A DNA stretch of 53,299 nt from Stellaceae bacterium (GTDB taxonomy: Bacteria; Pseudomonadota; Alphaproteobacteria; ATCC43930; CGMCC-115725). Below the pieces are notes generated by a model, which saw only the letters and a list, made by a program, of their open reading frames with translations, made no database searches and had not been told where the DNA came from. Position numbers and translations under genes: made by a program. Below, in pieces: positions 4,013 to 25,239 of the stretch (its first letter is position 1; each line of letters starts with the position of its first letter). The DNA is taken from contig DASZLY010000338.1 in the NCBI GenBank assembly GCA_035552135.1, positions 1-53,299 of the forward strand, given 5' to 3'.

Positions 4013-4995
4013 AATTCGGGCTCCGGCGGATAGACCGTGCTGCCCTCGTAGCGCAGCCGCTGATTGCGGTCGGCCGCCAGCAGCAGCGGCCCGTCGAGAT
4101 CGACGACGCTCGCCAGCTGCGCAACGAGGATTGCCGGCGCCATCGCGAGCGAGGTGCCGATCATGCAGCCGACCATGATCCCGAAGCCGCGTTCTTTCGC
4201 CGCCGCGGCCAGTTTCAGCGCCTCGGTGAGCCCGCCAGTCTTGTCGAGTTTGATATTGATAGCATCGTATTTGCCAACCAGCCGGTCGAGATCAGCCGTG
4301 GTGTGGCAGGATTCGTCGGCGCAAACCGGAATCCGGTGCGGCAGTTCGGCGAGGGCATTGTCGTCATCCGCCGGCAGCGGCTGCTCGATGAGCTCGACCC
4401 CGAGCGCCGCGAGGCGCGGCGCCAGCTCGGCGAAATGTCGCGCCGTCCAGCCCTCGTTGGCATCGACGATGAGCCGCGACGTGGGCGCTTTGTCGCGCAC
4501 CGCCTGGACCCGGTCGAGGTCGCCATCGCCGGTCAGCTTCAGCTTGAGCAGCGGCCGGGTGCGGTTCGCCGCCGCCGCCGCGCCCATGCGCTCCGGCGTG
4601 TCGAGCGACAGGGTATAGGCGGTGACCAGCGGTCTCAGCGGCCCGATCCCGGCAAGCGCCGCGGCGGAGCTGTAGGCGCGTTTCGCTTCGATGTCCCAGA
4701 ACGCCGCATCGAGCGCGTTGCGCGCCGCGCCGGGCGGCATCGCCTCCTGCAGGCTGTCGCGGTTAAGTCCCGAGAACACCGCGCCCTTCATCGCCTCCAG
4801 CGCCGCGACGACGCTGTCGACGCTCTCGCCGTAACGCGGATAGGGCACGCACTCGCCGCGGCCTTGGGAATCGCCGTCATGCAGCTCGGCGACGACGACC
4901 TCGGCGGTTGTCCGGCTGCCGCGCGAGATCGTGAACGCCTGGGCCAGCGGCCAGGCGCGGCGGGTGACATGGAGGCGTTGCGGGTGTGGTGCCAT
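4003..4995 (-). CDS. Enolase-superfamily dipeptide epimerase / N-acyl amino-acid racemase (L-Ala-D/L-Glu epimerase or DgcA-like)
   Basis: ORF 4003..4995. FTISRGSRTTAEVVVAEL..GRGECVPYPRYGES..KLKL..IVDANEGW..IEQPLP..CADES..INIKLDKTGGLTE are muconate-lactonizing-enzyme subgroup motifs. It overlaps the alkA-like start by 10 nt. Confidence 0.8.
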   Translation of the reverse strand: MAPHPQRLHVTRRAWPLAQAFTISRGSRTTAEVVVAELHDGDSQGRGECVPYPRYGESVDSVVAALEAMKGAVFSGLNRDSLQEAMPPGAARNALDAAFWDIEAKRAYSSAAALAGIGPLRPLVTAYTLSLDTPERMGAAAAANRTRPLLKLKLTGDGDLDRVQAVRDKAPTSRLIVDANEGWTARHFAELAPRLAALGVELIEQPLPADDDNALAELPHRIPVCADESCHTTADLDRLVGKYDAINIKLDKTGGLTEALKLAAAAKERGFGIMVGCMIGTSLAMAPAILVAQLASVVDLDGPLLLAADRNQRLRYEGSTVYPPEPELWG

Positions 4996-13391: not shown

Positions 13392-13973
13392 ATGAAAACC
13401 GCACTCCAGGGCGCGACGGCCGCGATCGCCATCCTCGCCAGCACCACCGCTTTCGCTCAGACCGCCGCGACCCGTCCCGGCCCCGCGCCGGCACAGGCGC
13501 CGGCCGCATCGACCGCGTCGGGCGGGGCGGGGCGGCTGAGCGGCACCGACCAGAAATTCATCGACAGTGCCGCGATCGGCGGCATGTTCGAAGTCAATGC
13601 CGGCAAGCTCGCGGAAAAATCGGCGAGCGGGCAAGTGAAGCAGTTCGGCGCCCGCATGGTGCACGACCACAGCGCTGCCGACAGCAAGCTCAAGCAGATC
13701 GTCAGCGCCGAGGGCGGCACCGTGCCGCAAGCGCTCGACCAGGACCACCAGCAAAAGCTCGACCAGCTGGCCGCGCTAAAAGGCCAAGATTTCGACCGCA
13801 CCTACATGCAGATGATGGTCAAGGACCATGACGAGGATTCGCAGGATTTCGGCAAGGCCGCGCAGAACCTCGACAACCCGCAGCTCAAGCGGTTTGCCGC
13901 GCAGACGCTGAAGGTGATCGAGAGCCACGACAAGATGGCGCACCAGATCACCGACAAGACGGCGGCGAAATAG
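13392..13973 (+). CDS. DUF4142 domain-containing secreted protein
   Basis: ORF 13392..13973; signal peptide MKTALQGATAAIAILASTTAFA; DQKFIDSAAIGGMFEVNAGKLA..MVHDH..DFDRTYMQMMVKDHDED. Confidence 0.8.
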   Translation: MKTALQGATAAIAILASTTAFAQTAATRPGPAPAQAPAASTASGGAGRLSGTDQKFIDSAAIGGMFEVNAGKLAEKSASGQVKQFGARMVHDHSAADSKLKQIVSAEGGTVPQALDQDHQQKLDQLAALKGQDFDRTYMQMMVKDHDEDSQDFGKAAQNLDNPQLKRFAAQTLKVIESHDKMAHQITDKTAAK

Positions 13974-14290: not shown

Positions 14291-14366
<76 letters not shown>

Positions 14367-15012: not shown

Positions 15013-16239
15013 CTACTTCCGCACCCGTCTTGCCGCCAGCCGCAGGCGCAGCGCGTTCAGCTTGATGAATCCCTCGGCATCGCGCTGGTCGTAGACCGCG
15101 TCCTCCTCGAAGGTGACGTGCGCCTGGCTGTAGAGGCTGTTAGGCGATTGCCGGCCGACGACGCCGACCGAGCCCTTGTAGAGCTTGAGGCGCACCCGGC
15201 CTTCGACCTTTTCCTGGCTCTTGTCGATCAGCGCCTGGAGCATCTCGCGCTCCGGCGAGAACCAGAAGCCGTTGTAGATCAGCTCGGCGTAGCGCGGCAT
15301 CAGCTCATCCTTGAGGTGCATCGCGCCGCGGTCGAGGCAGAGGCTTTCGATGCCGCGATGCGCCGCCTGGAGCACCGTGCCGCCCGGGGTCTCGTAGACG
15401 CCGCGCGACTTCATCCCGACAAAGCGGTTCTCCACCAAATCGAGCCGGCCGATGCCGTGCGCACCGCCCAGCTCGTTGAGCCGGGTGAGCAAGGCAGCGG
15501 GCGACAGCGCCGCGCCATCCACCGCGACCGGGTCGCCCGCCTTGAAATCGATCTCGACATATTGCGGCCGGTCGGGCGCCCTCTCGGGCGCGACGGTGCG
15601 GCTGTAGACGTATTCCTCGGGCTCCTGCCACGGGTCTTCGAGCACCTTGCCCTCGGCTGAGATGTGCAAGAGGTTGGCATCGACCGAAAACGGCGCCTCG
15701 CCGCGCTTATCCTTGGCGATCGGGATCTGGTGCTTCTCCGCATAGTCGAGCAGCGTTGTGCGCGATGTCAGGTCCCACACCCGCCACGGCGCGATGACCT
15801 TGATGTCGGGCTGCAGCGCGTAATAGCTGAGCTCGAACCGCACCTGATCATTGCCCTTGCCGGTCGCGCCGTGCGCCACCGCATCGGCGCCGGTCTCGCG
15901 CGCGATCTCGATCTGCCGCTTGGCGATCAGCGGCCGCGCGATCGAGGTGCCGAGCAGATATTGTCCCTCGTAGAGCGCATTGGCGCGAAACATCGGGAAG
16001 ACGAAATCGCGGACGAATTCCTCGCGCAGATCGTCGATATAGATCTGCTTGACGCCGAACAGCTCGGCCTTCCGGCGCGCCGGCTCGAGCTCCTCGCCCT
16101 GGCCGAGATCGGCAGTAAAGGTCACCACCTCGCAGCCGTACGTCTCCTGCAGCCATTTGAGGATGACCGAGGTATCGAGCCCGCCCGAATAGGCCAGCAC
16201 TATTTTTTTTACACCGTTCTGCTTCACCATCTCGACCAT
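15013..16239 (-). CDS. argG: Argininosuccinate synthase
   Basis: ORF 15013..16239; [44 protein letters not shown]. Confidence 0.95.
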
Positions 16240-16320
16240 GTAGCCATCCCGTAAATCGCGCCGCCCTTTCTGTCATCGCGATGGCGGGGAGGCAATCGCG
16301 GGCGGTTGTAGCCCTCGCAT

Positions 16321-16704
16321 CTACGGCCCCTGCAGCACAGCTCGGCCGCGCAGACACAACGTGATGCGCCGACCAAGCTTCAACGCCGGGTATAAGACCG
16401 CCGACAGCAATCTGCTTGAAAATATCGCCCTGTTCAGCCGGTTGGCGAGCGACGATGAGGTTGATAGGCCGGCCAAAACGTAAATGGCCTCGCTGCCGTG
16501 ATGGACGATTCCCCTATAGACGAACAGCATGCCTTCATTCAGGTCGTAACCCTCTTTCCAATAATGGAGCAACCGAGGGTCGCCCGAGCGAGCATCGAGC
16601 AATTCAACGGGCCCGACGGTTTCGCGCAAGTGAAGCAGGCGAACGTAATTATGGCAAAAGATGCATTCCCCGTCGTAAATGATTAGCGCCGGTTGATCGG
16701 TCAT
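16321..16704 (-). CDS. DCC-family (DUF393) thiol-disulfide oxidoreductase
   Basis: Internal ATG 16704 of ORF 16321..16848. MTDQPALIIYDGECIFCHNYV carries the DGxCxxC signature. Starts 8 nt after the stop of the upstream HTTM gene. Low GC. Confidence 0.8.
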   Translation of the reverse strand: MTDQPALIIYDGECIFCHNYVRLLHLRETVGPVELLDARSGDPRLLHYWKEGYDLNEGMLFVYRGIVHHGSEAIYVLAGLSTSSSLANRLNRAIFSSRLLSAVLYPALKLGRRITLCLRGRAVLQGP

Positions 16705-16712
16705 TGACCCAG

Positions 16713-18626
16713 CTAACGATAGAGAATGCCACCGAAGAAATCGTAAGAATGCCCTGAGTTTTCCGTCACGCGAATGACGATCGGGTACCAGCTCGAGGGC
16801 AACTTGGCATAGTAATTGGGATCGAAGGTGAATATTGCTCCCTTCCATGTTCCCAAAGGAACGAGCAGCGGGCCGGTCTTGTAGTTCTTCCAGGGGTCGT
16901 TCGCAAGCAGGATGTCATAGCGCGCGACGTCCATGCCCTGGCTTACAACATCCACGACAGCGTTGTTCCCGGCGGAGCTCACCCCGCCAGCGGCGGCGAT
17001 GACGCGGCCGCTGTTGCGCTCGTACCGTCCCACGAGGGCATGAAAGCCCAGTGCGAACCTCACCGTTTCGGGATAGGGTGGGATATCGAGCACCGAGGAG
17101 TAGAGATCGATGGCGCTATAGTCGCGAACATCGACCAACCCGACACAGTCGGGCACTTTGGACTCGGTTTCGCTCTTTACTCGCTCCACTACGCCGCGGA
17201 TCGCGCCGATCTGTTCGGTCAATTTTTCCGTCAGGTTGTCGTCACGGAACGTCATTACATAAAGCGAGTTGATGTTGGGGTAGCACGACCATTTGCGGCG
17301 TGTGTCATCGGGATATTCGAGCTCCAACTCCGCATAGGGGAAAGGGTAGTGCAGGTGCTCGGAATATGGTTTCCGGGCCGCGACGTTTGAATAGAATGTC
17401 ATCGACGAGAACGGGTACGCACGATTTCCGAACTCGTCCAGCCGCGCCAAGATCACCACTAGATTGGCTGCCATGAACGCCGCCGCATAAGCGACGATTA
17501 AGCGGCCGTGGGCAACCGGCCGCGCCGGTTCCTTTGATGGAAGGCGCAGCCGCAGGCGGCCTAGAAAATAGTCCCAATCGACGAAGAAGGCGGCAAGGAG
17601 GATCCATTGCGGATTCCAGAACGCCATGACCTCCTTCAAGAGGACCGTTCCGGCAACGAAAATCAGCCCCTCCAGCAAGCGAACATACGGCTTGGTGAGC
17701 GATAGAACCGCGAAGATCGGCAAGGCCTGGGTCGCCAGATGGCCGAAAGCGGCAAGTCTCCAGATCCAGGGGTGGTTGACGATCAGGCTGACCTGCGGCG
17801 GCAAGGGTCGGCCAAAGATCAACCACGGCAGAGAAACCGAATTCCGCAAATTGTCGGAAAACACCCATGCCAAGTCGTAGGTAAAGTTGGGGCTCGACCA
17901 TTTGGCGTAAAATCCCCCGAAATACACGGCTGAAGCGCCGAACATTCCGAGAATGACCGGCCACCAATAAACCTCGCGATCGAGCGCGATCGGGCGGCGC
18001 AGGACATAGCGCGCGATCAGACTATCGACCGATAGCGTATCGCCGGCGCGGCCCAACATGAAACCGATGCCGGCCAGCAATTCGCCGTTGTAGGGGTGAG
18101 ACCACAACGGCTCCCAGGAATAGAGAAACGCTCCGAGAAAGCACATGCATAGAACGCTGACGATCATCGTCACACGCGTCAGAAAACCGACGAGGGCGCA
18201 CAGCGTCGCTGCTGGGCCGATAAACAGCAGAATCTGAATCAGGGAGGCGGGGGGCGGGAAGTTCGGAAACAGAAGCCAGACAAGCCCTTTCGGGTAATAG
18301 GCCGCGAGATCGACCATCTGATAATAGTGCGTCGGATCGCCGATCCCGTTTGCCAAGGCGCCCCAGTAAACGTGAATGAAGAGGCAGCCGAACAAAGCCA
18401 TCCGGCAGATTGCGATGGAATAGGCGCCGCCCGGCCTGAAGAAGTATCGGCGAATAGCCGACGCCATGCGCGCCCAGATCGATCCGCCGGGCAGGGCTAT
18501 CGCATATGGCATCGGCGAATACTTCGCGGGCGAAGCCCTCGCAATTTTCGAATCCAAAAGTTCGCGAGACGCGACTTTCGAATCGCGAGATGGCTGCGCC
18601 CGCATCAATCGAATCCAAATTTCCAT
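16713..18626 (-). CDS. HTTM domain (vitamin K-dependent gamma-carboxylase-like) polytopic membrane protein with an unassigned about 230-aa C-terminal domain
   Basis: ORF 16713..18665. ATG 18626 has AGGAGA 7 nt upstream. At least 8 hydrophobic segments. AYSIAICRMALFGCLF, ..SWEPLWSHPYNGELLAGIGFML..SVDSLI.. and ..VYFGGFYAKW.. parallel HTTM/GGCX core motifs (recalled from memory). The gene is AT-richer than its neighbours. Confidence 0.75.
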   Translation of the reverse strand: MEIWIRLMRAQPSRDSKVASRELLDSKIARASPAKYSPMPYAIALPGGSIWARMASAIRRYFFRPGGAYSIAICRMALFGCLFIHVYWGALANGIGDPTHYYQMVDLAAYYPKGLVWLLFPNFPPPASLIQILLFIGPAATLCALVGFLTRVTMIVSVLCMCFLGAFLYSWEPLWSHPYNGELLAGIGFMLGRAGDTLSVDSLIARYVLRRPIALDREVYWWPVILGMFGASAVYFGGFYAKWSSPNFTYDLAWVFSDNLRNSVSLPWLIFGRPLPPQVSLIVNHPWIWRLAAFGHLATQALPIFAVLSLTKPYVRLLEGLIFVAGTVLLKEVMAFWNPQWILLAAFFVDWDYFLGRLRLRLPSKEPARPVAHGRLIVAYAAAFMAANLVVILARLDEFGNRAYPFSSMTFYSNVAARKPYSEHLHYPFPYAELELEYPDDTRRKWSCYPNINSLYVMTFRDDNLTEKLTEQIGAIRGVVERVKSETESKVPDCVGLVDVRDYSAIDLYSSVLDIPPYPETVRFALGFHALVGRYERNSGRVIAAAGGVSSAGNNAVVDVVSQGMDVARYDILLANDPWKNYKTGPLLVPLGTWKGAIFTFDPNYYAKLPSSWYPIVIRVTENSGHSYDFFGGILYR

Positions 18627-18678
18627 ATGCGATTCTCCTGATCCGCGGAGCGGGGAGATCAGCATCGCGGTAATATAA

Positions 18679-19767
18679 TTACCGGTGCCGCGCCTTGACG
18701 CTGACCGATTTGAGCTGGCCGCAAGCGGCGAGGATATCGCGGCCGCGCGGCGTGCGCACCGGCGCGGAGTAGCCGGCGGCGAAGACGATGTCGGAAAACG
18801 CCGCGATGGCCGCGTCGGTCGAGCATTCGTACGGCGCGCCGGGCCACGGGTTGAACGGGATCAAGTTGACCTTGGCCGGGACGCCCTGGAGCAGCCGCAC
18901 CAGCTCCCGCGCCTCGGCTGGGCTGTCGTTGACGTCTCTCAACATCACGTATTCGAAGGTGATGCGTCGGGCGTTGCTCGACCCCGGATAGGCGCGGCAG
19001 GCATCGAGCAGCTCGCCGATCGGATATTTCTTGTTGAGCGGCACAAGCACATCGCGAATGTCGTCGCGTACCGCATGCAGCGAGATCGCCAGATTGACCC
19101 CCAGTTCGCTGCCGCAGCGCGCGATCATGGGCACCACCCCGGCGGTCGACAGGGTGATCTTGCGGCGCGAGATCGCCAGTCCTTCCGGGTCCATGACGAT
19201 CTTCATCGCCGCCGCGACATTGTCGAAATTATAGAGCGGCTCGCCCATGCCCATCAGCACGATATTGGTGAGCTGGCGGTCTTCCCCAGCTCCATTTGGG
19301 GACGATGGCCATTCGCCGAGCGCGTCGCGCGCCAGCATGACCTGGCCGACGATCTCCGCCGTGCCGAGATTGCGCACCAGGCGCTGAGTGCCGGTGTGGC
19401 AGAAGCGGCAGGTCAGCGTGCAGCCCACCTGCGATGAGACGCACAGCGTGCCGCGGTCCTCCTCGGGGATGTGGACGGTCTCGACCTCCTGCCCGTCGGC
19501 GAAGCGCAGCAGCCATTTGCGCGTCCCGTCCTGTGAGGCCTGCACTGCCGCGACGTCCGGGCGGCCGAGCACGAAGCGTTCGGCGAGCTGCGCGCGAAAT
19601 CCCTTGGCGAGGTTGGTCATCGCCGCGAAATCGGTGACCCCGCGGTGGTAGATCCAATGCCAGAGCTGGCGTGCGCGGAACGGCTGGGCAGCGAGATCGC
19701 CCAGCGCATCGGCCAATTCCGCCCGCCCGAGGCCGACAAGATTGGGCTTTTCGATATCGATATCCAT
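18679..19767 (-). CDS. rlmN: 23S rRNA/tRNA (adenine-C2)-methyltransferase, radical SAM
   Basis: ORF 18679..19767; [18 protein letters not shown] radical-SAM cluster motif; overall RlmN collinearity. Confidence 0.95.
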
Positions 19768-20348
19768 CAGCGCTTCACATCACAGGCTTTGTCGATCAGC
19801 GCCAGCGCCTTGGAAAATCCGGCCAGCGAATAGGTGTCGGTCGTCGCACGGCCTTTCTTGGGCGCGGCCTTGACCACTGCCTGCCTCTCCTTGGTCATCG
19901 CGGCGACAATCGCCTTGTCGATCTCGGAGGTGCGGGCCCAGGCCGTATCGTCCTTGGCGAAGAGAGGATATTTCTGCGACCCCACCTCGAGGACCACATC
20001 GTTGTCCTCGTTGAGCGGGTAGCCCTCGTCGAAGCTCACGACATTGCTGACATTATCTTCGGTGCGATGGGTGATCATCGCCATCACGGGGCGGCGCTGC
20101 GCCGCGGCCGGCGCGCTCTTTTCCGGCTGGCCGACCAGATAGCACACCTTGCCGGCCTTGTTCTGCGCGAGATAGGCGGTCCAGGACCCGGCGCTGCCGA
20201 GCGATTTCGCCGGGCCCGGATCGGCGCTCGGCGCGGCCGCGGCGGAAGCCGGCTTGGCCTTGGGCTTTCTCGCCGCGGCGAGATTCGGCGCAGCCGGGAC
20301 AAACGCGAGGCAAAGAGCGCCGAGAAGCAGCGGCCAAGTTTTCATCAT
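19767..20348 (-). CDS. Invasion-associated locus B (IalB) family protein
   Basis: ORF 19767..20348; signal peptide; [16 protein letters not shown]..; the usual alphaproteobacterial neighbour of rlmN. Confidence 0.85.
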
Positions 20349-20443: not shown

Positions 20444-21007
20444 ATGGCCACGGGGAGCGACATCACGGTCCGAACCGCCCGGCTCGACGATGCCGCGCCG
20501 ATCGGCGGGCTCGACGTCGAGACTTGGCAGGCGGCTTATGCCGGGATCCTCGGCACGCCCTATCTCGCCGGCCTCAGCGCGGCCCGCCGCGAGGCTGGCT
20601 GGAGCCATGTGATTCGGCGCGATCCGGCGAGCGTCTATGTCGCCATCGCCGCTGACGGCGCGATCGTCGGCTTCGGCAGCTGCGGCGCGGCGCGCGGCGA
20701 GCCGAGTTTCACCGGCGAGGTGTTCACCCTCTACGTGGCGCCGGACTGGCAGAACCAGGGCATCGGGCGCCGCCTGCTGCTGGCAATGTTCGCCCGGCTC
20801 GCGGCCCAGGGCCACAAATCCGCGGTGATCTGGGTGCTGCGCGAAAACTCAGCACGGTTCTTCTATCAGCGACTCGGCGGCCGCGAGATGCGCCACAAGC
20901 AGCTGCCGTTCAACGGCAGCGAGGTCGCGGCGGCGGGCTATGGCTGGAGCGACCTGCCCGGCTATCTGGCGGCACACACGGCCGCGGACCGCGAGCCCAA
21001 GGCCTAG
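20444..21007 (+). CDS. GNAT family N-acetyltransferase
   Basis: ATG 20444 inside ORF 20369..21007; LYVAPDWQNQGIGRRLL acetyl-CoA binding motif (Q/RxxGxG/A). Confidence 0.8.
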   Translation: MATGSDITVRTARLDDAAPIGGLDVETWQAAYAGILGTPYLAGLSAARREAGWSHVIRRDPASVYVAIAADGAIVGFGSCGAARGEPSFTGEVFTLYVAPDWQNQGIGRRLLLAMFARLAAQGHKSAVIWVLRENSARFFYQRLGGREMRHKQLPFNGSEVAAAGYGWSDLPGYLAAHTAADREPKA

Positions 21008-21483
21008 CGGAAATGCGCCGGGGGCGGGCCGGCGAGCGCGCTGGCGTCACCGCCTTCCTGCCAGTGCCCGCTCTTCTTCAGCGCCGCGGCGACTTCGGGC
21101 GGCATGTATTTCTCGTCATGCTTGGCGAGAATCGTGCCGGCGACAAAGACCCCGTCCTTGATCCGCCCCTCGGCGACCACCCCCTGCCCCTCGCGAAACA
21201 GGTCGGGAAGCATGCCGTCATAGCTGACCGCGATGTCGGTCTTGCCGTCGGTGACGCGAAACGCGACGCGGCCTCCGTCCTCGTGCACCACGCTCTGCGT
21301 CTCGACCAACCCGCCGATGCGCAATCGCCCCTCAGCGAGCGCCGGCTTCGTCAGGAGCTCGGTCGGACTGTAGAAGAACACTAGATTGTCGCGAAACGCC
21401 GCCAGCACCATGGCCGTCGCGCCGCCCAGCGCGACCAGCCCGACGACCAGGATCGCCAGGCGCTTCTTCTTGCGGCTGGTCAT
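21004..21483 (-). CDS. ccmE: Cytochrome c maturation heme chaperone CcmE
   Basis: ORF 21004..21483; FFYSPTEL..LRIGGLV..VLAKHDEKYMPPEV (heme-binding His). Confidence 0.95.
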   Translation of the reverse strand: MTSRKKKRLAILVVGLVALGGATAMVLAAFRDNLVFFYSPTELLTKPALAEGRLRIGGLVETQSVVHEDGGRVAFRVTDGKTDIAVSYDGMLPDLFREGQGVVAEGRIKDGVFVAGTILAKHDEKYMPPEVAAALKKSGHWQEGGDASALAGPPPAHFR

Positions 21484-21644
21484 CGCCCGCCGCGCTGCAG
21501 CCGGTCGAGTTCGCGCAGGCTGGCGCGATAGCGCCGCACCGACTGCACCGCGATCCCGCCGAGCACGGCGAGCGCGACCGCATAGGCCGGCCAGACAAAA
21601 GCCGCGTAGCCGCCCATCGCCGCCCAGCCGGCAAGGCCGCTCAT
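21480..21644 (-). CDS. ccmD: Heme exporter protein CcmD
   Basis: ATG 21644 within ORF 21480..21881; MSGLAGWAAMGGYAAFVWPAYAVALAVLGGIAV; ATGA overlaps with ccmC and ccmE. Confidence 0.8.
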   Translation of the reverse strand: MSGLAGWAAMGGYAAFVWPAYAVALAVLGGIAVQSVRRYRASLRELDRLQRGGR

Positions 21645-22405
21645 CGCAGCGCCGGGCTCGCGCCGGGCACCGGCGCGTCGCTGCGCCGGGCCGGCGCGGC
21701 GAGCCGCAGCGCGCGCGCCTTGCGCTCGTTCAATGCCGTACGCATGCGGACGAAGAGCAGCGCCTTGAACAGCAGCAGATAGCCAACCGCCATCACCAGC
21801 AGCGGCCACAGCATCGACGCGTCGATCGTCGGACCGCCCATGCGAAAGACGCTGTCGGCCTGGTGCAGCGTGTTCCACCAATCGACCGAGAATTTGATGA
21901 TCGGCAGGTTGACCACCCCGACCAGCGCCAACACCGAGCCGGCGCGCGCGCCGCGGCCGGGATCATCAAACGCGTTCACCAGTGCGATATAACCGAGATA
22001 GAGGAAGAACAGCACCAGCACCGAGGTCATCCGCGCGTCCCACGCCCACCACGTGCCCCACATCGGCCGGCCCCACAGCGAGCCGGTGACGAGGCAGACC
22101 AGGGTGAAGGCCGCGCCGAGCGGCGCCGCGGCCTGGGCGGCAATTTCCGCCAACGGATGCTTCCACACCAGCGCAACCGCGCTCGCCACCGCGACGACGA
22201 GGTAGGCGAAGAGCGCCAGCCACGCTGCCGGGACATGGACGAACATGATCTTGACGCTCTCGCCCTGCTGGTAGTCGGGCGGCGCCACGAACAGTGCGAG
22301 ATAGAGTCCCGCCGCCAGCATCGCCACGGCCGCCAGGCCAAGCGCGGGCAGCATGGCGCCGCTCCACCGCATAAAGCGCGCCGGGTTGGCGAGATAGGTC
22401 AGCAT
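21641..22405 (-). CDS. ccmC: Heme exporter / heme lyase component CcmC
   Basis: ATG 22405 within ORF 21641..23236; WGRPMWGTWWAWDARMT (WGxxWxWD Trp-rich motif). Confidence 0.9.
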   Translation of the reverse strand: MLTYLANPARFMRWSGAMLPALGLAAVAMLAAGLYLALFVAPPDYQQGESVKIMFVHVPAAWLALFAYLVVAVASAVALVWKHPLAEIAAQAAAPLGAAFTLVCLVTGSLWGRPMWGTWWAWDARMTSVLVLFFLYLGYIALVNAFDDPGRGARAGSVLALVGVVNLPIIKFSVDWWNTLHQADSVFRMGGPTIDASMLWPLLVMAVGYLLLFKALLFVRMRTALNERKARALRLAAPARRSDAPVPGASPALR

Positions 22406-22431
22406 GGCGGCAAGTCTACCCCAAAACCCCG

Positions 22432-23097
22432 TCAGTCGAGCGCCTGGCGCAATGCCGCGGCCGTGGCGAGGGGCGCCAACGGTAGTGCCGCGAGGCTTAG
22501 CGCGCCGAGGAGCAAGAGATGGGGACGCGCGCCGCCCCCGGCAATTCCGGCCTCGACCGCCCCCGCGCCGAAGATCAGCACCGGCAGATAGAGCGGCAGC
22601 ACGATCAGCGATGACAGCACGCCGGGCCGCCGCGCGCCGAGGGTCAGCGCCGCGGCAATTGCCCCCAGAAGGCTCAGCGCCGGCGTGCCCAGCAGCAGCC
22701 CCAGCGCCAACACGGCCATGGAGCGCGCGTCGAGATCGAGCAGCAGCGCGAGAAACGGGCTGATGATCGCGAGCGGCAGCCCGGTCGTCACCCAATGCGC
22801 CGCGCATTTGGCGACGACCGCGCCCTCCAGCGGCATCGCCGATAGCGCCAGGAGGTCGAGCCCGCCATCGGCGTAATCGGCGGCGAACAGCCGGTCGAGG
22901 CTCAGCACCGCGGCGAGCAGCGCGGCGACCCAGATGATTCCGGCGCCGATCTGGCGCAGCGTTTCCGCCTCCGGCCCGACGCCGAGCGGAAACAGCATCA
23001 CCGCCAGCACGAAAAACCCGAGCGCCAGCCCGATCTCGCCGCCCTGGCGGAAGGCGAGCAACACATCGTGCCGAAAGAGGCCGAGATAGGGGCGCAC
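22432..23097 (-). CDS. ccmB: Heme exporter permease CcmB
   Basis: ORF 22432..23097; six-TM profile; LFAADYADGGLDLL motif. Confidence 0.9.
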   Translation of the reverse strand: MRPYLGLFRHDVLLAFRQGGEIGLALGFFVLAVMLFPLGVGPEAETLRQIGAGIIWVAALLAAVLSLDRLFAADYADGGLDLLALSAMPLEGAVVAKCAAHWVTTGLPLAIISPFLALLLDLDARSMAVLALGLLLGTPALSLLGAIAAALTLGARRPGVLSSLIVLPLYLPVLIFGAGAVEAGIAGGGARPHLLLLGALSLAALPLAPLATAAALRQALD

Positions 23098-23099
23098 CC

Positions 23100-23774
23100 T
23101 CAGAACCCGCCGGACATCTCGCCGGCGTGTGGCGGTGCCGCGAAATCCTCCAGCGCCAGGCGGTGCGGGCCAGACAACCCCAGCGCCTGATGCGTGGCGA
23201 TCGCGACGCGCCCGCCAGCCGCGCGATGCGCCTCAATCACCGTCAGGAGACGCTGTTCGCCATCGGCGTCGAGCGCGGCGGTCGGCTCGTCGAGCAGCCA
23301 GATCGCCGCCGGCGCCGCGATCAGGCGGGCGAGCGCCAGCCGGCGCCGTTGCCCGGCGGACAGCCAGCGGCACGGCCAATCGGCGATCGTGTCAAGGCCG
23401 AACGCGGCGAGCGCCGCATCGAGGCGCGGCGCCGCGATGCCGCGAAGCCCGGCCCAGAACGCCAGCGTCTCGCGCACCGCCAGCGCCGGCTTGATCGCGT
23501 CGAAGTGCCCGACATAATCGAGGCTAGCGCGGTAACGGCCGGGGTCGTAAACGACGGGCGCGCCGTGCCAGACCAGCTGTCCCGCCGCCGGCGCCAGCAG
23601 CGTCGCGAGCAGCCGCAAGAGGCTCGACTTGCCGCTGCCGTTGGCGCCCGTCAGCACCAGAGCGCCGCCCGGGGGCAGCACAAAACCCAGCCCGGCGAAG
23701 ACCAGCCGCTCGCCGCGCCGGCAGGCCAGTCCCTCGGCGATGAGATCACTGTCGCCGACAGCGAGTTCAGTCAT
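23100..23774 (-). CDS. ccmA: Heme ABC exporter ATP-binding protein CcmA
   Basis: ATG 23774 within ORF 23100..24053; Walker A GANGSGKSSLLR, signature LSAGQRRRLAL, Walker B IWLLDEP. Confidence 0.9.
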   Translation of the reverse strand: MTELAVGDSDLIAEGLACRRGERLVFAGLGFVLPPGGALVLTGANGSGKSSLLRLLATLLAPAAGQLVWHGAPVVYDPGRYRASLDYVGHFDAIKPALAVRETLAFWAGLRGIAAPRLDAALAAFGLDTIADWPCRWLSAGQRRRLALARLIAAPAAIWLLDEPTAALDADGEQRLLTVIEAHRAAGGRVAIATHQALGLSGPHRLALEDFAAPPHAGEMSGGF

Positions 23775-23788
23775 TGCCGGGCGCGGGC

Positions 23789-23825
23789 AAAAAAAGGCGG
23801 CTCCGGAGGGGGAATCCGGAGCCGC
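23789..23825 (-). terminator. Intrinsic terminator-like hairpin (11-bp GC stem, 7-nt loop, U7)
   Basis: RNA sense GCGGCUCCGGA-UUCCCCC-UCCGGAGCCGC-C-UUUUUUU (stem 23797-23807/23815-23825, A-run 23789-23795 on the plus strand). It ends only 14 nt before the ccmA ATG. Confidence 0.7.
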
Positions 23826-23850
23826 TTGGCTCCCGTCCGAGCAAATCGGC

Positions 23851-23901
23851 CGGATGCGAGGTTTGGGGGACAAACCTGTAAGGACCTGCCTTACCCATCC
23901 G
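23851..23901 (-). promoter_or_regulatory. Structured RNA element (closing stem plus two hairpins), candidate leader aptamer or sRNA body
   Basis: Closing stem cggatg (23851-23856)/catccg (23896-23901) encloses aggtttg-gggga-caaacct (23859-23877) and gtaagg-acctg-ccttac (23878-23894). In RNA sense the loops are C-rich (UCCCC). Confidence 0.35.
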
Positions 23902-23991
23902 ACATTGCCCCCCGATTGCGTCGCCGCGTTGAATAAATTGAGGCGTTTTGATGAATTTGCCGAAGCCCCGCTGCTGCACTCGGCTCGCGTG

Positions 23992-25239
23992 CTAGCCGAT
24001 CGGCCGGCGGTCTTCGATGAGCCGCCCGTCTTGCGGCAGGCTGCCGGCAGCAACGCAGGAAACCGCGGTGCGCAGCTTAGTCACGGCCTGCGCCGTCGCG
24101 GCGATCGCGTCCGCTTCGCCCGGCGCATCGGTTTCCACCAGCAGCGTCATTGCATCGGCATTCGCCGGGCGCTCGATCACCAGGCGCACGCGGCGCACCG
24201 CCGGGTGGCGGCGGACGATCTCGCCGACCTGCGAGGGATGGACGAACATGCCGCGCACCTTGGCCGACTGGTCGGCGCGGCCGAGCCAGCCCTTGATGCG
24301 CTGATTGGTCCGCCCGCACGGACTCGGCTCGGTGAGCACCGCCGACAGATCGCCGGTGGCGAAGCGAATCAGCGGGTATTCCGGCGTCAGCGTCGTCACC
24401 ACGACCTCGCCGACCTCGCCCGGCGCTACCGGCGTGCCGCCGCCCGGCTCGACGATTTCCAGGATCACCCCTTCGTCGACCACCATTCCGTCGCAGACCG
24501 CACCGTCGGGGCCCGTCGTCTCATAGGCGATGAGACCGAGATCGGCCGTGCCGTAGCATTGCAGCGCGGCAATGCCCTTCGCGGCGAATTCGGCCCGCAA
24601 GACGCCGGGAAAAGCCTCGGCGCCGACCATCGCCTTTTTCAGCGAGGAGATGTCGCTGCCGGTCTCAGCGGCGCGGTCGATCAGGATCTTGAGGAAGGAC
24701 GGCGTGCCGACATAGGCGACCGGCCGCAGATCGGCGATCGTCTTGAGCTGCTGCTCGGTCTGTCCCGTGCCGGCCGGGATTACCGGGCAGCCCAGCGCCA
24801 GAGCCGCGCTTTCGAGCATCGCCCCAGCCGGGGTCAGGTGATAGGAGAACGTGTTGTGCACCAGATCGCCGGCACAAAAGCCGGCAGCGTGCAGCGCCCG
24901 TGCCATGCGAAAGAAATCCGGCCGCCGCGCCTCGATCTCGTAGATCGGCCCGGGCGAGGCGAAGACCCGCGCCACGGCGTCCATCGTCACGGTGGTGAAC
25001 CCGCCGAACGGCGGGTTGCGCCGCTGCACGTCGAGCAGCTCCGACTTCCGCGTGAGCGGCAGCGCCGCGAGGGTGGGGCGGCTGTCGACGGCCTCGGGGC
25101 GGATGCCGGCGAGAAGCTCGCGATAGGCCGGCGCGTGACGCTGCGCCGCGCCGACGAGTTGCGGCAACGCCGCCATCAACGCCGCCTCGCGCGCCGCCGG
25201 GTCGCGCGTTTCGCTGTTGTCGTAGAAGGACACCGCCAC
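23992..25239 (-). CDS. Phenylacetate-CoA ligase family protein (PaaK-like adenylate-forming enzyme)
   Basis: ORF 23992..25329; YDNSETRDPAAREAAL..LPLTRKSEL..GTPSFL..YGTADLG..IRFATGDL..KVRGMFVHP. The start is probably GTG 25239 or 25233, because the porin terminator occupies 25327-25361. Confidence 0.8.
   Translation of the reverse strand: MAVSFYDNSETRDPAAREAALMAALPQLVGAAQRHAPAYRELLAGIRPEAVDSRPTLAALPLTRKSELLDVQRRNPPFGGFTTVTMDAVARVFASPGPIYEIEARRPDFFRMARALHAAGFCAGDLVHNTFSYHLTPAGAMLESAALALGCPVIPAGTGQTEQQLKTIADLRPVAYVGTPSFLKILIDRAAETGSDISSLKKAMVGAEAFPGVLRAEFAAKGIAALQCYGTADLGLIAYETTGPDGAVCDGMVVDEGVILEIVEPGGGTPVAPGEVGEVVVTTLTPEYPLIRFATGDLSAVLTEPSPCGRTNQRIKGWLGRADQSAKVRGMFVHPSQVGEIVRRHPAVRRVRLVIERPANADAMTLLVETDAPGEADAIAATAQAVTKLRTAVSCVAAGSLPQDGRLIEDRRPIG

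Follow-up and report, generated by a model that had tools for sequence, protein, structure and literature searches.

A Two-Gene Cassette in an Alphaproteobacterial Contig

A stretch of 53,299 nucleotides (nt) from contig DASZLY010000338.1 of a Stellaceae bacterium (assembly GCA_035552135.1), referred to as the window, carries two adjacent genes on its minus strand that are treated below as a cassette. The first (16713..18626; stop codon 16713-16715) is an intact open reading frame (ORF) extending from ATG 18626 to the stop at 16713; it encodes an HTTM/GGCX-like polytopic membrane protein of 637 amino acids (aa), called the large protein. The second (16321..16704, minus strand) begins at ATG 16704 and encodes a 127-aa DCC1-like thiol-disulfide oxidoreductase of Pfam family PF04134, called the DCC protein. 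The stop codon of the first gene is separated from the start codon of the second by an 8-nt spacer on the same strand (16705..16712; CTGGGTCA), and the arrangement described in an earlier note on this DNA, a 637-aa ORF followed 8 nt downstream by a DCC gene, was thereby confirmed on the minus strand. The spacer is consistent with translational coupling or an operon, and at other loci the two genes overlap by up to 32 nt or are separated by up to 31 nt. The findings that follow identify the pair as a conserved and mobile two-gene unit whose membrane component is remotely related to human GGCX.

The large protein is likely to begin at ATG 18512 (599 aa) rather than at ATG 18626. ATG 18626 has the best Shine-Dalgarno sequence (AGGAGA), and the longest possible ORF starts at 18665 (650 aa). 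ATG 18626 is doubtful as a start because residues 1-46 are unconserved and have a predicted local confidence (pLDDT) below 50 in the AlphaFold2 (AF2) model, homologues are 597-616 aa long, the database gene call for an identical sequence uses the start at 18467 (584 aa), and the stretch 18513-18626 contains short DNA repeats.

The DCC Protein Is an Obligate Partner of the Large Protein

The DCC protein, whose N-terminus reads MTDQPALIIYDGECIFC, matched PF04134 (DCC1-like/DUF393) with an E-value of 4.8e-9 and a score of 37.9 bits (gathering cut-off 27.8), over profile positions 1-107 of 113. An alignment of cassette partners placed a DxxCxxC redox motif, Y10-D11-G12-E-C14-I-F-C17, at 16654..16677 (minus strand), and Y10, D11, G12, C14, and C17 were invariant in all 10 cassette-linked DCC proteins. 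The assignment of the small protein to DUF393/DCC on the strength of its DGECIFC motif is thus borne out. No sequence relative of the protein was found in the PDB. It has neither a signal peptide nor a transmembrane (TM) segment, and it ends in a basic tail (LYPxLKLGRR). Two relatives of the large protein are natural fusions with DCC: in P0180, DCC occupies the N-terminus (residues 6-115), and in P0084, it follows the membrane core (residues 330-438), where the K/R-rich loop 358-373 lies. The DCC protein is most likely cytoplasmic, given the absence of a signal peptide and the N-terminal or cytoplasmic-loop position of DCC in these fusions.

Scoring was possible at 13 distinct loci, and a DCC gene lies immediately downstream of the large gene at every one of them (the window, L001, L003, L004, L005, L006, L009, L010, L012/L020, L013, L018, L024, and L026), and at one of them the DCC neighbor had been missed by the public gene caller. 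Identity among the DCC proteins (33-68%) tracks the identity of the large proteins. This adjacency, together with two independent fusion architectures, excludes a chance neighborhood, and the large gene and the DCC gene form a conserved two-gene unit in which DCC is the obligate partner. The co-occurrence of HTTM-like and DCC proteins anticipated from the window therefore extends to other genomes. The only sampled member with no neighboring or fused DCC is P0067, which has a neighbor with planctomycete-associated PSCyt/PSD1 domains. No third gene was conserved with the pair across the sampled loci. The large gene is split by a frameshift in L009 and L010 (L010 4001-5777) and the DCC gene in L009 (5850-6214), reflecting either assembly error or decay of the cassette in these loci from metagenome-assembled genomes (MAGs).

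The close family is small and rare and the wider family much larger. A word-indexed protein search recovered 34 close-family proteins, none with a Pfam domain, and a second such search with a diverse alignment (A2) gave no proteins beyond the same 35. In a set of 185,579 species-representative genomes, close-family members occurred at five loci, all in Alphaproteobacteria: Aureimonas leprariae, a Hoeflea sp., a Pseudolabrys MAG, and two uncultured MAGs. Cultured carriers are Aureimonas leprariae YIM 132180 and Hoeflea sp. YIM 152468. An exhaustive profile search collected 818 clusters (50% identity) at E ≤ 1e-3 and 188 at E ≤ 1e-30, and none of them is annotated.

Remote Similarity of the Large Protein to GGCX

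Pfam, including the HTTM/VKG_Carbox model PF05090, gave no match to the large protein at E-values up to 10, whether it was searched whole or in halves, and NCBIfam gave none. PHROG and PADLOC models gave no match to either cassette protein or to the relatives P0041, P0084, P0180, and P0034. Among 59 relatives sharing 19-38% identity with the window protein, over which conservation was also counted, nine gave weak matches to Pfam DoxD (best E 4.3e-8; several below the 22.7-bit cut-off) that cover the TM2-TM4 region; the window protein itself had no DoxD match. DoxD is a family of quinone-binding membrane subunits and belongs to the same clan as HTTM (DoxD-like).

The relationship to GGCX was reached only by profile-profile and fold comparison. 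An AF2 model of the large protein built with 32 homologues had a pLDDT of 87.3 and a predicted TM-score (pTM) of 0.85. When this model was compared with 350,542 PDB chains using Foldseek, 16 matches were obtained at E ≤ 1e-3, and every one was a human GGCX cryo-EM structure (E 1.9e-8 to 2.6e-4, probability 1.00); the next-best match had an E-value of 0.016 and a probability of 0.2. The human GGCX sequence used for profile comparison was identical to that in the PDB at 758 of 758 residues. Alignment of the wide-family (A2) profile with GGCX using hhalign gave an E-value of 9.2e-5 and a probability of 59% over 163 columns, pairing residues 64-246 of the query with residues 57-222 of GGCX. The score was 43.5, compared with 21.5 or less in 24 controls consisting of local shuffles and reversed GGCX (control E ≥ 0.089). 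A profile on the GGCX side brought no gain (probability 26-36%, against 59% with the single sequence); that profile was shallow, as the search with human GGCX yielded only vertebrate orthologues among the best 120 matches listed. These vertebrate sequences bear PF05090 and PF22777.

The hhalign alignment reproduced the three motif parallels with GGCX drawn in the earlier note. On the combined evidence of the alignment and the model, the TM domain is judged to be a very divergent HTTM/GGCX-fold domain that retains equivalents of the catalytic Lys and His. The proposed HTTM/GGCX-like identity accordingly stands for the TM domain, where fold and profile comparison agree, and fails with the hidden Markov model (HMM) searches and with the C-terminal domain. 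Among viral predicted structures in BFVD, the only one resembling the model was A0A5K0UBG6, a giant-virus (Yasminevirus) protein of 822 aa (E 4.9e-4 over 367 columns). The protein bears the name "desaturase" and may consist of an HTTM-like domain fused to a lipid desaturase.

Conserved Residues Lie at the Predicted Periplasmic Interface

The TM domain (residues 64-400; 17427..18437, minus strand) has nine predicted crossings, with the N-terminus inside and the C-terminus outside. This topology was derived from helix positions in the AF2 model and from the positive-inside rule, using counts of Lys and Arg in the loops: 12 in the cytoplasmic N-terminus, five in cytoplasmic 190-220, and four in cytoplasmic 358-373, as opposed to one in periplasmic 93-126, none in periplasmic 169-179, and two in periplasmic 244-285. 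In the predicted topology, the conserved residues of the domain gather at the periplasmic interface.

In GGCX, K218 is the general base, and W157 and N159-H160 contribute to the Glu-carboxylate binding site (PMC12647623). In the hhalign alignment, K218 is paired with K242 of the large protein, located in an FYAKW motif (codon 17901..17903, minus strand), and the GGCX W157..N159-H160 segment aligns with a WSH motif formed by Trp175-Ser176-His177 (18096..18104, minus strand), such that H177 is paired with H160 and W175 with W157. K242 is conserved in 59/59 relatives and in 32/32 members of the close set, H177 in 53/59, and W175 in 49/59, and the Lys and His equivalents expected by the earlier note are therefore present in a proper alignment. 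R261, Q300, and P405 are also invariant (59/59 each), and D201 and D258 are each conserved in 58/59. P405 belongs to a periplasmic loop after the last TM helix, R402-M409 (RAYPFSSM; 17400..17423, minus strand), in which position 404 is Tyr or Phe and F406 is present in 53/59. A permissive, low-confidence alignment pairs this loop tentatively with the LL9 loop of GGCX, LYGYSWDM (Y395, M401). The invariant Q300 falls within about one residue of GGCX D263, in the region beyond residue 246 where confidence in the alignment is low. The predicted topology thereby brings the WSH motif, K242, and the YPF loop together at the periplasmic interface, mirroring the lumenal interface of GGCX.

Beyond the membrane core lies a C-terminal periplasmic domain (residues 425-637; 16716..17354, minus strand). 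Modeled alone with AF2, these 213 residues gave a pLDDT of 90.5 and a tandem of two β-sandwiches. The domain contains a Cys448/Cys494 pair conserved in 31/32 and 30/32 sequences, respectively, which fits a periplasmic location. A Foldseek search with the domain returned no match at E ≤ 1e-3, only generic Ig/FnIII-like sandwiches at E ≥ 0.01. Conservation of the whole GGCX architecture, including its lumenal domain, was considered and rejected, since the C-terminal domain alone finds no match in GGCX.

The Cassette Is Horizontally Acquired and Mobile

The G+C content of the cassette is 57.5%, compared with 67.8% in the rest of the window; the drop extends from near 16250 to near 18650. The cassette is poorer in G+C than either of its flanks in the window, and this also holds for 9 of 12 loci. 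The neighboring genes differ between loci. In the window, they are the housekeeping genes rlmN (18679-19767), upstream, and argG (15013-16239), downstream, both on the minus strand with the cassette. In L006, the cassette is situated between endolysin and tail-fiber/baseplate genes, and in L012 and L013, it adjoins tail-fiber genes and a BNR/sialidase-like protein. A copy 99% identical to the L012 gene resides on a 45.7-kb IMG/VR viral contig, between terminase/portal genes and a tail-fiber module. This contig was found only through the distant members P0041 and P0034; a scan of IMG/VR with the close-family alignment produced no match, and tblastn searches of isolated phage genomes (INPHARED) and plasmids (PLSDB) produced none. 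A siphovirus gene is nearby in L009, and transposases or integrases flank the cassette in L005, L010, and L014. In L003, L004, and L024, the cassette is embedded among genes for GT4 glycosyltransferases, sugar epimerases, Wzm/Wzt, and AsnB-like amidotransferases, and the fused version in L014 adjoins a GT4 glycosyltransferase and a β-helix protein. These features identify the cassette as a horizontally acquired, low-G+C, mobile element; the earlier note had remarked neither on this mobility nor on the unlikeness of the C-terminal domain to GGCX.

Several observations were made on the genes around the cassette. A 425-465-aa protein is encoded between the tail-fiber gene and the cassette in L012 (2541-3905), L020 (5425-6822), and L013 (1879-3156); it matches phrog_23037 and, in L013, also Pfam BNR_4 (sialidase-like), and may be a receptor-binding protein that degrades glycans and has a functional link to the cassette. 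The AsnB-like glutamine amidotransferase and the GT4 glycosyltransferases recur in the three otherwise different glycan loci L003, L004, and L024, and the flanks of L003 and L004 additionally contain transglutaminase-core proteins and NAD-dependent epimerases. In L014/L015, a gene for a small MauE/DoxX-like membrane protein (4089-4571) is located just upstream of the fusion P0084, beside genes for an 878-aa NosD/β-helix protein and a GT4 glycosyltransferase.

The region from the rlmN stop codon to the likely start of the large protein (18513..18678, minus strand) is a probable 5' leader and putative regulatory region. TTGGATTCGA occurs there twice in identical form, at 18609-18618 and at 18548-18557 (a distance of 61 nt), and the related sequence GATTCGAAAG lies between the two copies. 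The rlmN stop codon is covered by a perfect, AT-rich palindrome, CGGTAATTATATTACCG; all these features lie within 18513-18683. The repeats and the palindrome may represent an operator or leader of the cassette, and they point to codons 1-38 of the 637-aa reading being non-coding. No sigma-70 promoter consensus was found in the leader region, and shuffled sequence yielded terminator-like sites at least as often. A search for island boundaries identified no convincing flanking direct repeats. The sole tRNA gene in the window, tRNA-Ala(CGC) (14291-14366, minus strand), is not an obvious integration site for the low-G+C insert, as it lies 2 kb from the cassette with argG in between. The region is further flanked by genes for an IalB (invasion-associated locus B) family protein (19767-20348, minus strand), a family typical of Alphaproteobacteria that would agree with the host proposed in the earlier note, and for a DUF4142 protein (13392-13973, plus strand). 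A run of ORFs at 21004-24053 (minus strand), judged from their translations alone, resembles a cytochrome c maturation cluster, with candidates for a CcmE-like protein (a 159-aa ORF, 21004-21483), for CcmC and CcmB (both membrane ORFs), and for an ABC ATPase (23100-24053).

A Proposed Function and Its Alternatives

The interpretation that we tentatively favor, at somewhat less than an even chance, is that the mobile cassette encodes a divergent, quinol-dependent enzyme of HTTM/GGCX fold that faces the periplasm and is served by a cytoplasmic DCC partner. The large protein would be an inner-membrane enzyme whose nine-helix TM domain adopts the HTTM/GGCX (DoxD-like) fold, with K242, H177, and the loop after TM9 placed at the periplasmic membrane interface beneath a family-specific double β-sandwich. 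We infer that the membrane domain would bind a membrane quinol, presumably ubiquinol in these Alphaproteobacteria. K242 would deprotonate the quinol, and oxygenation of the quinol would generate a strong base or oxidant. This species would then act on a substrate bound at the periplasmic face and modify it, with carboxylation as a putative outcome. The DCC protein would pass reducing equivalents from the cytoplasmic thiol pool and so regenerate quinol from the spent quinone or epoxide. The substrate would probably be a generic component of the host envelope rather than a dedicated, co-encoded peptide, because no third gene is conserved and the cassette is found beside receptor-binding genes, on insertion sequence (IS) and integrase elements, and in glycan loci.

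Several points weigh against this proposal. The HTTM model PF05090, expected by the earlier note to recognize the protein, matched none of the 59 relatives any more than the window protein, and HMMER searches of all PDB sequences with profiles of the close (A1) and wide (A2) families failed to recover GGCX. On the structural side, the global TM-score with GGCX is no higher than 0.31-0.45. At the position of GGCX N159, the window protein has Ser, and its relatives have Ser, Cys, or Gly. No equivalents of the CO2-pocket and Lys-relay residues of GGCX (F299, D263, and W223) could be mapped by alignment, and the lumenal propeptide-binding clamp domain (PF22777) has no Pfam or fold match in the large protein. 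Alphaproteobacteria are expected to make ubiquinone and not naphthoquinone, and we know of no established GGCX-type epoxidation of ubiquinone. In the predicted topology, the CxxC reductase is on the cytoplasmic face of the membrane and the putative active site on the periplasmic face, which makes it unlikely that the DCC protein directly recycles quinone at that site in the manner of VKOR. Of the analogy with VKOR drawn in the earlier note, the coupling of a CxxC partner to a membrane protein is retained, but the two parts would act on opposite sides of the membrane. Finally, the associations with genomic context are drawn from about 15 loci.

The strongest competing explanation, which we consider unlikely yet serious, is a thiol:quinone oxidoreductase module of the DoxX/DoxD/MauE type that lacks GGCX-like substrate chemistry. 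The membrane domain would then bind quinone and exchange electrons with the CxxC of the DCC protein, as in DsbB-DsbA, VKOR-Trx, and MauE-MauD, connecting the thiol pool of the cytoplasm with that of the quinones, for instance in protection from redox stress, and the β-sandwich would serve as a periplasmic docking or sensing module. Matches to DoxD in nine of the 59 relatives where HTTM has none point in this direction, as do the small MauE/DoxX-like gene beside the fused version in L014/L015 and the obligate link, by adjacency or fusion, to a CxxC protein of thioredoxin-like type; thiol oxidoreductases are frequent partners of membrane proteins in the DoxD-like clan. What favors the GGCX-type enzyme instead is that the best and exclusive structural match is GGCX, over the whole TM domain, and that the residues defining GGCX catalysis are the most conserved (K242, 59/59; H177, 53/59) and face the periplasm, opposite the DCC protein. 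A large conserved periplasmic domain and occurrence in phage and glycan-locus contexts would also be unexpected for a housekeeping redox shuttle.

A further explanation, rather doubtful in our assessment, starts from these contexts and regards the cassette as a lysogenic-conversion or surface-remodeling module. The enzyme would modify a lipid-linked or surface glycan, or another phage receptor, at the periplasmic face and would alter phage adsorption or serotype in the way that prophage Gtr/Oac systems do; the chemistry might be a GGCX-like proton abstraction at a carbon adjacent to a carboxylate, for example in uronic acids, or something unrelated. In L006, L012/L020, and L013, the cassette forms a separate transcription unit beside tail-fiber or receptor-binding genes, one of these in a predicted viral genome, and a phage gene is also present in L009. 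To these are added the glycan-gene surroundings in L003, L004, and L024, the GT4 and β-helix neighbors in L014, the resemblance of a polytopic TM domain with a periplasmic β-sandwich to known periplasm-facing glycan modifiers, and the lack of a co-encoded peptide substrate among the genes found. Against these stand the reliance on guilt by association at about eight loci, the housekeeping neighbors in the window, the lack of similarity to known glycan-modifying families or of a PHROG or PADLOC match, and the absence of the gene from the isolated phages and plasmids of INPHARED and PLSDB. This explanation overlaps the quinol-dependent enzyme proposal and refines it by specifying the substrate rather than contradicting it. 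In a bolder and quite improbable version, temperate phages and other mobile elements of Alphaproteobacteria carry a self-contained, ubiquinol-driven, GGCX-type "strong-base" oxygenase that is recharged by a cytoplasmic DCC reductase and modifies a surface polysaccharide or receptor at the periplasmic face, for example by carboxylating, epimerizing, or otherwise altering it.

It is very improbable that the fold is convergent or uninformative and the large protein a non-enzymatic transporter, scaffold, or exclusion protein with DCC as an unrelated neighbor or regulator: TM-scores below 0.5, the missing HTTM HMM match, and hhalign probabilities of just 36-59% would allow it, but all 16 significant matches among the PDB chains are to a single protein, the profile alignment sets an invariant Lys on the catalytic Lys and beats all shuffles, invariant polar residues in the TM helices (K242, R261, Q300, and D350) point to catalysis or ligand binding, and DCC adjacency at 13/13 loci with two fusion architectures rules out chance.

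GGCX chemistry relies on the oxygenation of a quinol to yield a base of sufficient strength to take a proton from a carbon acid. Its known occurrences are in animals and in a single bacterial natural-product pathway. The wider question concerns the roles of the many other bacterial HTTM proteins and their frequent tie to DCC CxxC proteins. As a compact two-gene unit found on phages, IS elements, and glycan loci, with cultured carriers, the cassette is experimentally tractable and should be portable to a heterologous host. If it does modify the envelope, it would bring new chemistry to the contest between phages and hosts at the cell surface, and the bolder version above would place vitamin-K-type chemistry in lysogenic conversion and give the HTTM-DCC pairing its first physiological role. 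Otherwise, the outcome is an annotation correction, with a new HTTM-like family that has a distinct periplasmic domain.

Comparison with Known Systems

Prophage GtrABC systems and acyltransferases of the Oac/OafA type share with the cassette their position as cargo beside receptor-binding genes in temperate phages and in polysaccharide loci, and they too involve polytopic membrane proteins with a periplasmic domain. They have no sequence or fold relation to the cassette and no redox partner. The DoxD, DoxX, and MauE families (PF04173, PF07681, and PF07291), which belong with HTTM to the DoxD-like clan, are connected to the large protein by the weak DoxD matches in 9 of 59 relatives and function together with quinones and with redox partners of the thiol or sulfur type. 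Unlike the large protein, they are proteins of approximately 140-170 aa with four helices and no periplasmic domain. Bacillus SdpB is likewise annotated as an HTTM-like protein and is required for the SDP toxin to mature.

GGCX itself shares with the large protein the multi-helix TM fold, for which it is the sole significant PDB match, and the N-in/C-out topology. Also common to both are the catalytic Lys (K218/K242) at the outer end of TM5, a W-x-x-H motif after TM3, an S-V-D motif, a conserved aromatic loop that probably follows the last TM helix, and a β-rich extracytoplasmic domain on top. The differences are considerable: identity is approximately 12%, and the relationship goes undetected by Pfam and HMMER; the clamp A/B propeptide-binding domain of GGCX is replaced by an unrelated tandem β-sandwich; and the C-terminal helices of GGCX are absent from the large protein. 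The partner of GGCX is VKOR, whereas that of the large protein is the DCC protein, and the cassette hosts are presumed to be ubiquinone users.

Fusions of HTTM and DCC1-like domains, with a DUF5819 partner, have been described in bacteria, for example in Melghirimyces thermohalophilus (A0A1G6IBF2 and A0A1G6IAS5), where the conserved Lys is present and a menaquinol site was modeled (bioRxiv 10.64898/2026.08.19.745780). Like the cassette, they couple an HTTM-type membrane domain to a DCC1-like CxxC domain, and DCC follows the membrane core as it does in P0084. The Melghirimyces proteins are recognized by the Pfam HTTM model, in contrast to the cassette family. Their extracytoplasmic module is a separate single-pass DUF5819 protein, whereas that of the cassette is a fused double β-sandwich, and DUF5819 had no Pfam match in the large protein. 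DCC, fused in Melghirimyces, is usually encoded by a separate gene in the cassette family. The presentation of the HTTM-DCC pair as an uncharacterized novelty was therefore overstated, given these fusions and the role already described for MloH, which contradicts the statement in the earlier note that no bacterial HTTM protein has an assigned role. What is new here is a branch that is invisible to current domain libraries, has a distinct periplasmic domain, and is carried as cargo by phages and mobile elements.

MloH, a bacterial vitamin-K-dependent carboxylase, acts on an aspartyl residue during the biosynthesis of malonomycin (cited in PMC12647623 and bioRxiv 10.64898/2026.08.19.745780). The Streptomyces protein (Law et al. 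2018, as cited in PMC12647623), compared with the large protein here by its description, is a membrane enzyme of GGCX-like type whose HTTM core carries a fused extracytoplasmic domain. It is encoded in a dedicated polyketide synthase-nonribosomal peptide synthetase (PKS-NRPS) cluster and has a defined substrate, whereas the cassette stands alone with no biosynthetic neighbors. MloH provides a bacterial example of catalysis by this fold on substrates other than those that yield Gla.

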